Source: Bdellovibrio sp.
GTDB taxonomy: Bacteria; Bdellovibrionota; Bacteriovoracia; Bacteriovoracales; Bacteriovoracaceae
Direction of reading: 5' to 3'
DNA length: 32,000 bases
Assembly: GCA_016187935.1 (NCBI GenBank)
Contig: JACPIU010000005.1
Coordinates: 64,885-96,884, forward strand
The translations under genes were made by a program, and so were the position numbers. Shown here in pieces: positions 4,336 to 9,381 of this stretch; the stretch's first letter is position 1, and each line of letters begins with the position of its first letter. Below the pieces are notes generated by a model, which made no database searches, was not told the DNA's origin, and saw nothing but the letters and a program-made list of their open reading frames with translations.

Positions 4336-6330
4336 ATGTCTTTTATGAAGTGTTTCATTGTGGCCGGTATGCTGGCATTTGCAAATAGCGGTCACACAAT
4401 TGATTTCGATGTTCCGCGCAGTTTTGTACCGCAAAATTTCAAGGACGGAATACCCTATTTGGGGGGAGGATTCGATTCCCACCGACAAAAGTTTACTGGT
4501 CGAAGATGTGTAGAGTTCAACAAAGATGTAATTGAATTATCTGGCGGATCTTCCGGCATGATCGAACTCAAATATCGCAAGGACCTGGATCGTCTGAGGA
4601 TGGAGCTTGGTTTAGACGTTGCTGGTAAACTATCCCTGGAAATTATCAGTGTGGGGGGCGCAGCCAGCTTGGCGATGGAAATCGTCGATGATGATTTGAC
4701 TAAGACATTTGTCTTTGAATCCTCATTTAACAGCAAGACATTAGGCCATGTCGGTCGAAAGACTGGACCTGGGGAAGGTAAAATATTTCTCAATGACTTG
4801 GGTAAAGAGGCCAAGGACAAGCCTGAAGATGAAAAACGCGAAGTCTGTGGAGATTACATGATTCAAGGCGTGAGTCTGGGGGCCAAATTCATTACGGCGG
4901 TGCAGTTGAGCTTCGCCACTAATGACCTTAAAACGAAATTTGAAGCTTCCATTGACGTCGATTTGGTGGACATCATTGAAATTTCTGGAAAGGCGAGAAA
5001 TTTTCTGGAGACCCATGGAGATCAGGTCTCTATTAATATTCGGGCCTTCCAACTGGGGGGAAATCCGGCGGAAATGCTCGATATCTTGGGAAGCGCTGGC
5101 AATTCCAATCGTGATACCACCGATGATATTTATCTGTTAAAGTGTGGAATCAGTGACACCGCCATTCAGAACTGTGTTAAAGCGCTTGAGCTCATCGTCA
5201 AATATGCCCACACAAACTTCAAAAATCAGATTAAGGATATGAGCTATGATTTCACCAGTCCAAAAGGCATGGCCGTGACAGGATACGTGTTGGAGACTTA
5301 CAAGCGATTGGGCGTATACGAGTTGTACCGGAACTATCCACCCCTGATGGATGCGAGAGTCAAGGATGCCAGAGAGGACTTATTAAATATGTATTTAAAA
5401 TTCGATCGCGATCACAAGCGTCTTCTCAGAATCAGGGACATGCATTTGACTCAAGAGGAGGAGAGTCTATTTAGCGAGATCGAAGACAAAATCAAGCACA
5501 ACAAAGATGTGGTCTATGAGACGTTGGACAAGTGCTATAACTTTATCGGAGACGTTTGTCTCAAACCTTATAAAGATATCAATGATCATTTAAAAAAATA
5601 CGATCCTAATAAGATTGTCAAAACTATCACGTTTCTAGATTATTGCACGATCCCCAAAAAGAGCGATGGATTAAAGAAGACAGTGGACGAGCTGTTTAAC
5701 TTCATTGGAATGGATGAGCAAACTGACAATTGTGAAAAGGCCTTTGAAGCTTTGAAGGAAGAAAATAACATCACTCTTTCCGGTAGGGGGGTAAGCTTTC
5801 TTGAACCTCTTTTGGGATTGCCAAATGTGGAAGAATTGGAAGTTGATCACAACCAGATTGTCGATCTTTCACCACTTCAGCATTTAAAGAAACTGCGCTA
5901 CCTCAATATTTCTCACAATAAGGTCAGAAACATCAGGGCCATCTCTGGACTTGAGAACCTGGAATGGGTGAATGCCTCGGACAATCTTTATATAAGGGAC
6001 GCCACGCCTCTGTACGGGCTGATTAAATTGCAGGAGGTCTATTTGCACGGCAATCAATGGGATTTTGGCCATAAACCGGTGGAAGTGGAACTCGCCAAAT
6101 TTAAATCCTCGGAAATCAAGCTTGGTAAGAAGATATCAGTGATGCAGATTGATGCCTGTAATCTAAAACGATCGCAGACCCTTTTCGATGGAAAAATCAG
6201 AGCGAGCACTTATGAGAATGCGGTTAATAAGGGTCTTTATCCGTTCATTCAATCTCAAGGGCGTAATGCCTATGAGATCAATGGTTGGGGTGACTGTGAA
6301 AAGGCCATAGCAACTTATTTTTTCTATTAG
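4336..6330 (+). CDS. Secreted MACPF/perforin-like domain protein with C-terminal leucine-rich repeats (paralog 1)
   Basis: Strong SD (GAGGAGGG) and signal peptide MSFMKCFIVAGMLAFANSG. LGGGFD resembles the start of a MACPF domain. CGDYMIQGVSLGA at 4846-4884 fits the MACPF signature (Y/W)G(T/S)H(F/Y)-x6-GG loosely. Internalin-like LRRs (LEVDHNQIVDLSPLQHLKKLRYLNISHNKVRNI...) lie at about 5770-6057. Confidence 0.6.
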   Translation: MSFMKCFIVAGMLAFANSGHTIDFDVPRSFVPQNFKDGIPYLGGGFDSHRQKFTGRRCVEFNKDVIELSGGSSGMIELKYRKDLDRLRMELGLDVAGKLSLEIISVGGAASLAMEIVDDDLTKTFVFESSFNSKTLGHVGRKTGPGEGKIFLNDLGKEAKDKPEDEKREVCGDYMIQGVSLGAKFITAVQLSFATNDLKTKFEASIDVDLVDIIEISGKARNFLETHGDQVSINIRAFQLGGNPAEMLDILGSAGNSNRDTTDDIYLLKCGISDTAIQNCVKALELIVKYAHTNFKNQIKDMSYDFTSPKGMAVTGYVLETYKRLGVYELYRNYPPLMDARVKDAREDLLNMYLKFDRDHKRLLRIRDMHLTQEEESLFSEIEDKIKHNKDVVYETLDKCYNFIGDVCLKPYKDINDHLKKYDPNKIVKTITFLDYCTIPKKSDGLKKTVDELFNFIGMDEQTDNCEKAFEALKEENNITLSGRGVSFLEPLLGLPNVEELEVDHNQIVDLSPLQHLKKLRYLNISHNKVRNIRAISGLENLEWVNASDNLYIRDATPLYGLIKLQEVYLHGNQWDFGHKPVEVELAKFKSSEIKLGKKISVMQIDACNLKRSQTLFDGKIRASTYENAVNKGLYPFIQSQGRNAYEINGWGDCEKAIATYFFY

Positions 6331-6343
6331 CAGGAGGCGCTCC

Positions 6344-7564: not shown

Positions 7565-9381
7565 AATATCTTTTCACTTTTTCTATTTTCATTTTATTCT
7601 TCGCGGATTTTCCGCCTTGCCACGCCACTTCTGAAATCAATTTCTCTTCCATGAAAGGATTTCTGCTGGGACCTGAGAAATTCCGGAAGGCCACTTTCAA
7701 TTCATTAACTTCGCGCATTTCTTCCTATGAATGCGTCAAGTCCAAAGTGAGTTGGAAGGCGGCACCCCACTCGCATAATGGACTTTATGCTCCTATTTCG
7801 CACCACGAGCTGAGCGGTATATTGTCCGGCGGTGACAATTACCAATTTTTTGAAGAGCAGAATGGTGGGGAAATTTCCCTCTGGCCTTTGTCCGCGCCTT
7901 CTTCCAAGACTGTCGAACTTTATTACTATTATGTCATAGAGGCAGGAAGAATCGATTTCGAAAAAAGCAAAATAACCTTGTCCCCGTTTATTCGTTCTCA
8001 AGCTGTTTTGGAAACATGTGGCGATCACCTTTTTAAAAGCATCACTATGGGCGGAATTTATTTGGTCCGTGTAAGTATCAATTTTTCATCGCAAAAGGAG
8101 AAGCAGAGATTGGCCGCTAAAAGCATGTTAGAAAGTTCGTCTTTGTACAATCTGGTAGGTCAGTTAAGGAAAATATCTACCGAAGGCGAATTTAAAATCT
8201 ATTTTAGCACTTTAAAACTGGGGGGATTCAAACAGTCGTTTTTTAAAAAAGATGACACTCATGAACATCTTTTCATGTGCACTAACAAAGATCTGGATGT
8301 CTGCGATCGCCTGAATAAAGTGATCTTGGATTTCCTAAGTTCGCCCGAGGGTTTCATGAGCGAAGTGATTCAAGACAATCCTTGTCTTTCCTGCCTGCGT
8401 AATCTGAAATACAAATTATTGCCGCTTTCGAGCTTAAAAAGAAGATTGCCGACCTATGATTATAAGAAAAGACAGGAAGTCATTATGTCTTTACTCCTGT
8501 TGAAAAAAAGCTTCTGGAATCATCTAGAGTTATTCAGCAAAATTAATGGACAAAGCGAATCCACCTTGCAAAAGATCACCGCAGGGGAAAAAAGAATTCA
8601 TGAGTCCCTGCAGAAAGTCGAATCCGATATTGAACAGTGTTATAAAATGGAAGGAATCTGTAGTAGGAGTATTCTTGATCCTGGTCAAATCAAAATTCCC
8701 GAGGACGATGTCAATCCTGATTTTTTATTTCTTTGCAAGCATCCCAATTTGAACACCAAAGAAATTAATCATTCCGTCAACATTCTATTCAAGCACTTTA
8801 ACAAAGATCCTGATAGTCTTATGGCCTGTGAGGACCTGTATTACAAAATCCTGGGCCAGGATCGGCTTGAGTTGCCGGGAAAAGAATTATCTGATCTTAC
8901 GGCGTTTCGCGAGTTCAATCATTTTACCTATCTCAACTTACGGAATAACAATATTGAAGATCTATCTCCCTTGGCCTCGATGGAAGCACTACTGGAATTA
9001 AACTTAAAGGACAATTACATCGAATCGCTTGGACCTTTGCACAAGCATGACAAGCTTAAGACTTTGAACATTAGTTTTAATCCCATTGTTGATTGGAAGG
9101 CGCTGGGAAATTTAAGTGGCCTTTTGAAGTTCAGGGCCCATTCAACCGCGAAGGAAATTCCCGAAAATCTCAAGCAAGATCTGTCGGCTCATCTTCAATT
9201 AATGATTGTAACTAAAAGAGATGCATGCTTGCACGAGTTAGAGAAGCTTTCACGAGAGGGGATCATTTCCCAATTGGAATATGTGGCCTTTTATCAATAC
9301 AATATGGCGCCAAATTTTAATTCTGATGGAAAAGTTGGGGAATTTGTGCCTTGCCAAGATGCCGTCGCTCAATTTGAATAG
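7561..9381 (+). CDS. Secreted MACPF/perforin-like domain protein with C-terminal leucine-rich repeats (paralog 3)
   Basis: Start set at ATG 7561, which overlaps the previous stop (ATGA). Signal peptide MKYLFTFSIFILFFADFPPCHA. CGDHLFKSITMGGIYL at 8017-8055 compares with complement C9 YGTHY...MGGIY. LRRs (YLNLRNNNIEDLSPLASMEALLELNLKDNYIESL...) lie at about 8863-9135. Confidence 0.6.
   Translation: MKYLFTFSIFILFFADFPPCHATSEINFSSMKGFLLGPEKFRKATFNSLTSRISSYECVKSKVSWKAAPHSHNGLYAPISHHELSGILSGGDNYQFFEEQNGGEISLWPLSAPSSKTVELYYYYVIEAGRIDFEKSKITLSPFIRSQAVLETCGDHLFKSITMGGIYLVRVSINFSSQKEKQRLAAKSMLESSSLYNLVGQLRKISTEGEFKIYFSTLKLGGFKQSFFKKDDTHEHLFMCTNKDLDVCDRLNKVILDFLSSPEGFMSEVIQDNPCLSCLRNLKYKLLPLSSLKRRLPTYDYKKRQEVIMSLLLLKKSFWNHLELFSKINGQSESTLQKITAGEKRIHESLQKVESDIEQCYKMEGICSRSILDPGQIKIPEDDVNPDFLFLCKHPNLNTKEINHSVNILFKHFNKDPDSLMACEDLYYKILGQDRLELPGKELSDLTAFREFNHFTYLNLRNNNIEDLSPLASMEALLELNLKDNYIESLGPLHKHDKLKTLNISFNPIVDWKALGNLSGLLKFRAHSTAKEIPENLKQDLSAHLQLMIVTKRDACLHELEKLSREGIISQLEYVAFYQYNMAPNFNSDGKVGEFVPCQDAVAQFE

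Follow-up and report, generated by a model that had tools for sequence, protein, structure and literature searches.

The 32,000-nt stretch of Bdellovibrio sp. DNA analyzed here, called the window and providing all coordinates below, contains a cassette of three tandem genes, P1, P2 and P3, whose products share a core resembling the MACPF proteins and in two cases carry leucine-rich repeats (LRRs). The initial annotation of this region had described three co-directional genes with a gap of 13 nt and then an ATGA overlap, a signal peptide on each product and a second paralog reduced to the bare core, and the open reading frames (ORFs) and junction sequences bear out this organization (Table 1). 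The 13 nt between P1 and P2 (...TAG caggaggcgctcc ATG) include an AGGAGG ribosome-binding site, and at the second junction (gaagatttATGAaat) the stop codon of P2 overlaps the start codon of P3. Read directly from the sequence, all three N-termini are signal-peptide-like, a basic residue being followed by a hydrophobic stretch and then by small residues that resemble a cleavage site. P1 consists of the signal peptide, the MACPF-like core, a helical hairpin, five internalin-type LRRs of 22 residues each and a cap; P2 is a core with helical hairpin and without LRRs, and P3 combines a divergent core, devoid of the N-terminal LGxGY motif, with LRRs (about 8860-9213) and a C-terminal cap. Note that the NCBI annotation places the start of P1 at 4345 (661 aa), and that the open frame of P3 begins at 7501, an internal ATG being used as its start. 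P1 is identical to P0001, recorded as 'MAG: LRR domain-containing protein [Bdellovibrio sp.]', and P2 to P0002, 'hypothetical protein HYV97_01430 [Bdellovibrio sp.]'.

Table 1. Features of the three-paralog cassette and of its flanks, in window coordinates.
Feature	Position	Strand	Remarks
S8 subtilase-like protein	1726..4050	-	divergently transcribed; probable lipoprotein, MTIKKIIMTTMVLLLSVAC...
Sigma-54 (-24/-12) promoter-like site TGGCACAGACGTTGCA	4281..4296	+	exact TGGCAC-N5-TTGCW (reads TGGCAC-N5-TTGCA)
P1, class A	4336..6330	+	ORF, 664 aa
P1 signature-equivalent CGDYMIQGVSLGA	4846..4884	+	translation; start of core strand b3
P1 second glycine motif QLGGNP	5050..5067	+	end of core strand b4
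P1 LRR block	5767-6042	+	five internalin-type repeats
P1 C-terminal cap	6145-6327	+	Cys-containing
P2, tentative class C	6344..7564	+	ORF, 406 aa
P2 signature-equivalent CGDAVVNEVHLGG	6833-6871	+	translation
P2 second glycine motif QIGGDP	7034-7051	+	
P3, tentative class B	7561..9381	+	606 aa, from internal ATG
P3 signature-equivalent CGDHLFKSITMGGIY	8017-8061	+	translation; 15 residues
P3 second glycine motif KLGGFK	8215-8232	+	
Second sigma-54-like site TGGCATGTATCTTGCT	9465..9480	+	one mismatch; intergenic, orientation correct
Secreted protein, putative Hint domain	9532..10539	+	335 aa
Small protein with N-terminal hydrophobic anchor	10590..11249	+	219 aa; weakly conserved cassette member

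The three cores belong to a large family. A word-indexed homolog search returned the query itself alone and, with a profile, two proteins; an exhaustive profile search of 50%-identity clusters yielded 1218 representatives at E<=1e-3, 583 of them at E<=1e-10. A family hidden Markov model (HMM) built without the window sequences recovers P1 at 3.5e-64, P2 at 7.7e-42 and P3 at 1.1e-12. The carriers include Bdellovibrionota, Myxococcota, Legionellaceae, Piscirickettsia and marine Gammaproteobacteria. Family members are characterized by LGxGY near the N-terminus with a cysteine soon after, CGDxFVxxxxLG[AG], xQxGGDP and two cysteine pairs. Among 150 aligned members, CGD shows little or no variation in its C and G, and LG[AG] little or none in its first G; in the second motif the GG is invariant and the Q nearly invariant; in P2 numbering, G165 and G233-G234 are invariant and G175 nearly so. 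The glycine hinge motifs expected on the core sheet of the MACPF/CDC superfamily (CDC, cholesterol-dependent cytolysin) are therefore present and conserved. C-terminal modules vary, with LRRs in 41 of 79 long members and Kelch, Jacalin, Laminin_G_3 or ConA-like lectin domains in others. No model of Pfam, NCBIfam or PADLOC matches the core, either in the window proteins or in their relatives; MACPF is not among the 25 of 30 Pfam families listed for the 79 long members (E<=1e-3), and Thiol_cytolysin gave a weak match (0.0088) in one of 23 members. The record labels that we encountered read 'LRR protein', 'internalin' or 'hypothetical', none of them MACPF, and the searchable literature yielded no description of family or cassette.

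A MACPF identity of the core had been proposed from the sequence, and profile searches of the PDB agree with it. A profile of 23 family sequences gave one significant match, the 36-chain 'Aeg-L' pore 9uj0 (5.7e-7), and a core-only profile of 36 sequences improved this match to 1.3e-8, followed by pleurotolysin B (4.4e-3), GNIP1Aa (0.026) and Mpf2Ba1 (0.05). By this comparison these four, two fungal aegerolysin partners and two insecticidal MACPFs of bacteria, are the nearest solved relatives of the core family. All PDB matches of the core-only profile at E<=10 were MACPF toxins (11 of 11), with no CDC or CDC-like protein (CDCL) among them. Single-sequence phmmer searches of the PDB returned matches to the LRRs alone for P1 and none for P2. 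In the profile alignments the G-Y of LGxGY pairs with QGYN of Aeg-L, and CGDxFVxxxxLGA pairs with YGDRFIADFIKGG of Aeg-L and with YGHVFRTKVHIGG of pleurotolysin B, the MACPF signature of the latter. The family motif QxGGD, QLGGNP in P1, pairs with NGGD of pleurotolysin B, so that pleurotolysin B matches both glycine motifs and Aeg-L retains the GG of the signature only.

Structure prediction provided a second line of evidence. The AlphaFold2 model of P2, calculated from the 150-sequence alignment (pLDDT 78, pTM 0.67), was compared with the PDB using Foldseek, and all of the top 50 matches were MACPF/CDC proteins, with probabilities of up to 0.98. They include MPEG-1, TgPLP1, pleurotolysin B, Mpf2Ba1, Bth-MACPF, Plu-MACPF and GNIP1Aa as well as C6, C8 and C9, perforin, astrotactin-2, CDCs and EaCDCL-S. 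In the P1 model (pLDDT 82.5, pTM 0.78) DSSP assigns strand b1 to residues 49-74, three helices to 81-112, b2 to 119-135, a helix-turn-helix element (HTH) to 151-168, b3 to 171-190 (20 residues, after CGD), three further helices to 193-227 and b4 to 228-237, the latter ending at GG 238-239. The order of secondary structure in the P2 model is equivalent (b1-helices-b2-HTH-b3-helices-b4). In both models b3 begins with CGDx..LG[GA] and b4 ends with QxGG, the GG segment lies on the long core strand right after the HTH, and helical clusters occupy the places of the transmembrane hairpin regions TMH1 and TMH2. The predicted P1 and P2 folds follow the connectivity b1-TMH1-b2-b3-TMH2-b4 of the bent, four-stranded antiparallel MACPF/CDC sheet, the TM-scores of the P2 model being 0.2-0.3. 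Profiles and models support the MACPF reading of the core, including the position of the GG segment on the core sheet. Of the two outcomes that the initial annotation had named as refuting it, a lack of the MACPF/CDC fold and a GG segment away from the core sheet, neither occurred.

Family-averaged hydropathy over the 150 members shows a strong period-2 alternation in two inter-strand regions, P2 residues 89-111 (89-97/104-111) and 194-213 (194-203/207-213), which in helical regions is what one would predict for segments that convert into membrane hairpins. Individual sequences differ in this respect. P1 scores positive and P2 weakly (TMH1 z=0.2, TMH2 z=1.0), and P3 has no period-2 amphipathic pattern (TMH1 and TMH2 z of -0.7 and -0.1). 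The alternation of hydrophobic and polar residues in TMH2 is kept in class A and in the P2 group defined below, as in KIKIKVLFFKKTITKTK (L1_383) and FEASIDVDLVDIIEIS (P1).

In the signature-equivalent segments of the window paralogs, C-G-D-Y-M, C-G-D-A-V and C-G-D-H-L are each followed by six residues and G-[AG]. The positions originally assigned to these segments translate correctly in all three genes, except that the third ends at 8061, an end at 8055 covering its first 13 residues; a second motif LGGxP, said to be common to all three, holds for P1 and P2 but gives way to KLGGFK in P3. The resemblance of P3 to complement C9 in the pentapeptide 'MGGIY' was dropped as evidence and is best treated as coincidence, because the 42-aa segment around it has no PDB match at E<=10. 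The assignment of internalin-type LRRs to P1 and P3 is sound: Pfam LRR_4/LRR_8 match P1 (496-550) and P3 (456-509), not P2, with LRR_4 E-values of 9.9e-13 and 3.3e-8 in the two LRR paralogs, and internalins A, B and H are the best PDB matches by sequence (internalin A, 4e-33). By fold, Foldseek superimposes the LRRs on internalins with a root-mean-square deviation (rmsd) of 1.2-1.7 A at 24-39% identity (about 1.5 A over about 107 residues), and in the P1 model the LRR strands recur every 22 residues, at 475, 497, 519, 541 and 564.

Homologous loci were gathered by tblastn and contig look-ups: L001 in Pseudoalteromonas xiamenensis (NZ_CP099918), L002 on the Acidisarcina plasmid pACPOL1, and L003, L004/L005, L006 and L007 on four metagenomic contigs. 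A degenerate two-motif DNA pattern added 14 loci, three of them false (Photobacterium, Rhodococcus and Caldilineaceae) and eleven in GTDB genomes, namely three Bdellovibrionota, Oligoflexus, four Legionellaceae, Nannocystis, a Myxococcaceae and a Cellvibrionaceae member. The window, L003, L004 and L006 have three tandem copies each, as does L001 with one of its copies frameshifted, and two tandem copies are present in six of the eleven further genomic stretches of 8 kb each. The expectation that bacterial MACPFs are usually single genes fails for this family, in which tandem sets are the norm. The disrupted paralog of L001 (4240-5744) is split into overlapping ORFs at 4240-5013 and 5007-5744; since the family HMM matches one of them with its N-terminal and the other with its C-terminal half, the paralog represents a frameshift or a pseudogene in this strain. 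L001 also has a GEVED-domain protein encoded between the paralogs. In L002 an LRR-only protein (6462-7385) is encoded directly downstream of the single core+LRR member, and a CHAT-domain protease gene and an IS6 transposase adjoin; this locus may represent a cassette that has been reduced or has become mobile. Four loci from Legionella or Legionellaceae metagenome-assembled genomes (L012, L013, L016 and L022) hold tandem pairs of paralogs of about 550 aa, and L006 contains two divergent cassette operons (2872-9971), each with its own trypsin-like protease.

A neighbor-joining tree on 352 HMM-aligned core columns unites the P1-like copies W_P1, L3_A, L4_635 and L6_633 in class A with a bootstrap value of 99. 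By topology, and with weak support, the remaining copies form a P2 group (class C; W_P2, L1_383, L3_C, L4_599 and L6_620) and a P3 group (class B; W_P3, L4_626, L3_B and L6_584), and each of the four well-flanked loci (the window, L003, L004 and L006) has one class A copy and two divergent copies, topologically one from each group. As class A copies are orthologous across the four loci, they are not recent local duplicates. A bare core without binding module (P2, L3_C, L1_383) recurs beside LRR-bearing copies.

The genes flanking the paralogs are in part conserved with them. Downstream lies a putative Hint protein with a signal peptide, a Cys-rich N-terminal domain of about 115 aa and a candidate Hint module, in which Cys1 is codon 143 (9958) and the TxxH block, T232/H235, starts at 10225. 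Its match to Pfam Intein_splicing (1.3e-4, 22 bits) is below the cutoff of 35.8, the NCBIfam model of the intein N-terminal region is likewise sub-threshold, and the Pseudoalteromonas homolog has PT-HINT and Vint matches below their cutoffs. In an alignment of six sequences, Cys143, T232 and H235 are invariant. Since the protein has at Gly-Cys143 the residues required for an N-S acyl shift, it should, judging from its sequence, release the Cys-rich N-terminal domain. This protein type of about 300 aa is also encoded beside family members in L001, L003, L004, L006, L007, L017 and L020, making eight loci with the window (E-values of 3.6e-16, 2.5e-14, 1.2e-17 and 5.9e-22 in an all-against-all comparison). 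The L001 homolog, a protein of 660 aa, has a long N-terminal extension.

Upstream and divergently oriented is a gene for an S8 subtilase-like protein, whose mechanically defined ORF reaches a TTG at 4119 and whose C-terminal half matches Pfam Peptidase_S8 (6.1e-11). S8 genes homologous to it adjoin family members in L003 (34% identity, 3e-19), L007, L017 and L019. In the three aligned proteins (window, L003 and L007) the His, the GAGN motif and the Ser of TSxAxP are kept, the position of the Asp being not settled, and the signal peptide ends in a conserved Cys, for which reason these proteins, that of the window included, are probably lipoproteins. The protease of L004 and L006 is trypsin-like, so that linkage to a protease persists while its type switches; S8 or trypsin-like genes adjoin in seven loci. 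The 219-aa protein downstream of the Hint gene has no Pfam family and is related, with weaker support than the other linked genes, to L7_210 (BLASTP 5.6e-5), which in turn matches L4_243 (4.6e-11), L6_231 (1.2e-4) and an ORF of L019 (62% identity).

The sigma-54 promoter-like site at 4281-4296 is the sole exact consensus match in the window and lies about 40 nt upstream of the P1 ATG; the site 52 nt upstream of the ATG of the Hint gene is the weaker case. Among the loci scanned, convincing sites were found in the window and in L006, where two one-mismatch sites face the two divergent cassette operons, and none in L003, L004 or L001. L006 also encodes a Response_reg + Sigma54_activat regulator and an extracytoplasmic function (ECF) sigma factor beside the cassette operons.

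Among known systems, the closest sequence relatives are the aegerolysin-partner MACPFs Aeg-L (9uj0; 1.3e-8) and pleurotolysin B (4oej/4v2t; 4.4e-3), with which the cassette proteins have the MACPF core fold in common. In Alternaria, Aeg-L forms the pore as the large partner of the aegerolysin Aeg-S (two reviews; PDB title), and in such multi-component pores a separate binding component targets the membrane. In the bacterial cassette, unlike these fungal systems, targeting would fall to fused modules, LRRs or others, MACPF paralogs take the place of a small lipid-binding protein as partners, and the signature is CGD, not YG(H/D). A search for aegerolysin with Pfam covered 21 of the 23 window ORFs of at least 150 aa, seven ORFs of L001 and L002, three Hint-like neighbors (L003, L004 and L006) and the Pfam lists of L003-L007, and returned none. 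As this search shows no aegerolysin gene nearby, we rejected the idea of an aegerolysin partner for the window proteins. A role in anti-phage defense after the manner of protease-activated gasdermins was likewise rejected, on account of the signal peptides, the conserved cysteine pairs and the lack of PADLOC matches.

The two-component CDC-like toxins EaCDCL and BfCDCL of Bacteroidota (PMC11169675, PMC11952106) are similar in their architecture, with tandem MACPF/CDC-superfamily paralogs, a long one with a binding domain and a short bare one; in the window these are the LRR-bearing P1 and P3 and the bare P2, long LRR-bearing and bare paralogs also stand side by side in L003, and EaCDCL-S is among the fold matches of P2. 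Experiments have established that CDCLs use the long component as platform and the short one as pore builder, that they depend on cleavage and that their operon includes a gene for an immunity lipoprotein (PMC11169675). The cassette differs in belonging to another sequence family, its nearest PDB sequences being MACPFs and not CDCs, in having up to three paralog classes and a linked Hint-domain protein, in encoding its own protease, whereas that of the CDCLs is borrowed from the target, and in its occurrence in Bdellovibrionota, Myxococcota, Legionellaceae and marine Gammaproteobacteria. With complement C6-C9 the likeness is in MACPF paralogs of non-equivalent roles that assemble sequentially, non-polymerizing members acting as initiators, but there is no orthology, and the ancillary domains are TSP, LDLRA and EGF in complement versus LRR here. 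The single-gene bacterial MACPFs GNIP1Aa (6fbm), Mpf2Ba1 (8b6u/8b6v), Plu-MACPF (2qp2) and Bth-MACPF (3kk7) combine, as here, a secreted core with a C-terminal receptor-binding domain, and they are found among the sequence and fold matches. They act singly, whereas members of the core family usually occur in tandem, have a C-terminus of helical hairpin and LRRs, and escape Pfam. GNIP1Aa, Mpf2Ba1, Plu-MACPF and Bth-MACPF all match Pfam MACPF.

Taking these data together, we lean towards the view that P1-P3 are Sec-exported members of the MACPF/CDC superfamily that form multi-component, protease-activated pores, an account that we consider somewhat better than evenly supported by sequence, models and analogy. 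The operon would be transcribed, probably from the sigma-54 promoter, with coupled translation, and its products exported, their conserved cysteine pairs presumably forming disulfide bonds. P1, of the best conserved class A, and P3 would bind a receptor on the target-cell surface through their internalin-type LRRs and cap and provide a membrane platform, and a P3-type copy, class B having lost the amphipathic hairpin pattern, may serve as a non-inserting adaptor or initiator. The bare-core P2 would then be recruited and polymerize, its two helical clusters refolding into amphipathic beta-hairpins that form the barrel, in roles that would parallel those of CDCL-L/CDCL-S and C5b-8/C9. Cleavage by the linked serine protease, here the S8 lipoprotein, may activate the components, and the Hint protein would cleave itself at Gly-Cys143 and thereby free its N-terminal domain.

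Several observations weigh against this reading. The strict MACPF signature (Y/W)-G-(T/S)-H-(F/Y)-x6-G-G is not found in the window paralogs, the family having C-G-D-x-(F/Y/V) in its place: positions 1 and 3 are never canonical in the window, His at position 4 occurs in P3 only, and the aromatic residue at position 5, frequent in the family consensus (CGDxF), is absent from all three, which leaves the G at the second position and the x6 spacing to the glycine pair. Pfam MACPF (PF01823) matched neither the three window proteins nor 23 bare-core members at E<=1. Foldseek TM-scores of the P2 model are just 0.2-0.3 at high rmsd, and with the full-length P1 model the list was filled by internalin LRRs, with nothing on the core. 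The solved bacterial MACPFs Plu-MACPF and Bth-MACPF are not known to be lytic. Classes B and C are poorly backed, similarity within a class being barely above that between classes, and the differences between classes in TMH2 amphipathicity (z of 1.3-2.6 in class A, 0.4-2.4 in C and -0.8 to 0.6 in B) are small-sample z-scores. Loci with a single paralog, L007 and L002, suggest that one component may suffice, and no protease or Hint gene was found within the 8-kb stretches of the Legionellaceae loci. Because PF01823 is unmatched and the canonical Y/W-G-T/S-H residues are replaced, we file the core, on profile and model evidence, as a family of its own in the MACPF/CDC superfamily, outside the Pfam MACPF sequence family.

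The initial annotation had left open whether the three paralogs make up a multi-component pore or a set of pore formers diversified by target. We tentatively favor the former over simple target diversification, since each of four loci has one class A and two divergent paralogs. The converse, that the proteins are independent, self-sufficient pore formers whose tandem array diversifies targets through the LRR and cap modules, an arsenal and not a complex, we regard as unlikely, but it is the serious rival given that single-paralog loci exist and that classes B and C are weakly resolved. The wide variation of C-terminal modules (LRR, Kelch, Jacalin, Laminin_G_3) and the divergence of the LRR regions of P1 and P3 would also fit such an arsenal. 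It does not readily account for a bare core that recurs beside LRR-bearing copies, for a class A orthologous across four loci, for class B copies without an amphipathic TMH2, or for the 13-nt gap and ATGA overlap, where translational coupling suggests stoichiometric co-production.

It is improbable, in our estimate, that the proteins have the MACPF fold and are non-lytic, serving in recognition, adhesion or as scaffolds, secreted or on the surface, with LRRs that bind host or prey molecules. Astrotactin-2 and the apparently non-lytic Bth-MACPF are indeed among the fold matches, the signature residues differ from those of lytic MACPFs, and P3 lacks hairpin amphipathicity; however, the period-2 pattern is conserved in both TMH regions across 150 members, the GG hinge motifs are invariant, the closest PDB sequence relatives are all proven pore formers or toxins, and the linkage to proteases parallels that of activated toxins. 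A spurious resemblance, in which weak profile matches and an AlphaFold bias to a common beta-rich fold disguise an unrelated secreted domain, would be in line with the lack of Pfam or NCBIfam matches, the low TM-scores and MACPF E-values that all exceed 1e-3 except for Aeg-L, but is very improbable in view of two independent lines of evidence (11/11 sequence and 50/50 fold matches to MACPF/CDC), the gain in the Aeg-L match with a deeper profile, N-terminal and glycine motifs in register with Aeg-L or pleurotolysin B, and the agreement of secondary-structure order in two models.

A more far-reaching version of the multi-component reading, which we put forward as a quite doubtful one, is that the cassette constitutes a bacterial complement-like attack system under sigma-54 control, used by predatory and protist-associated bacteria and composed of Hint thioester tagging, a dedicated lipoprotein protease that activates the components and three MACPF classes of ancient divergence, which would assemble in order on the tagged surface. 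A thioester at Gly-Cys143 may transfer the N-terminal domain of the Hint protein covalently to a molecule or lipid of the target surface, a step that could be likened to Hedgehog cholesterylation or C3b tagging, and the ordered MACPF parts may be an LRR-bearing initiator, a non-inserting adaptor and a polymerizing bare core.

The kind of system, a multi-component, protease-activated MACPF/CDC pore former, is already known. New are the size and spread of an unannotated family, the recurrent three-paralog organization, the cis-encoded protease and the unprecedented Hint linkage, whose functional meaning we infer. The MACPF/CDC superfamily underlies complement, perforin and many toxins, and it was only in 2024 that assembly of a complement-like kind, with two components and protease activation, was demonstrated in bacteria, namely for the CDCLs of Bacteroidota. 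A recurrent paralog set linked to a protease and a Hint protein offers a tractable way into the evolution, targeting, activation and use of heteromeric MACPF pores, and at the least a new family model and the re-annotation of more than 1000 protein clusters are justified.

The target of the putative pore may be a eukaryotic grazer or host, or bacterial prey. Eukaryotic grazers or hosts are compatible with the C-terminal modules, with the taxa that carry the family (predators, Legionellaceae, Piscirickettsia and marine surface colonizers) and with the neighboring genes. Directly downstream of the cassette the window encodes an RCC1-repeat protein (11251-14397), followed by an ankyrin-repeat protein (14346-16850) that weakly resembles the Dot/Icm Ank effectors of Legionella, a protein with RyR domain, TPR and adenylate/guanylate cyclase (17005-18978) and a TIR + YARHG protein (18782-20578), and this run of genes with eukaryote-like domains suggests that the bacterium interacts with cells of eukaryotes. 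Scanning the window for Rfam families and tRNAs returned no match. The first 1.7 kb of the window have no listed ORFs, as a frame of 490 codons on the minus strand (3-1472) extends beyond its left end; CAVGCPFC within this frame is a CxxxCxxC motif of the type found in radical-SAM enzymes. Further downstream (22685-25224) are genes for an ECF-type sigma factor (Sigma70_r2/r4_2), two unannotated ORFs and a Secretin_N-domain protein, and the adjacent MsrB (SelR) and MsrA (PMSR) genes at 25495-26633 are apparently housekeeping and unrelated to the cassette.

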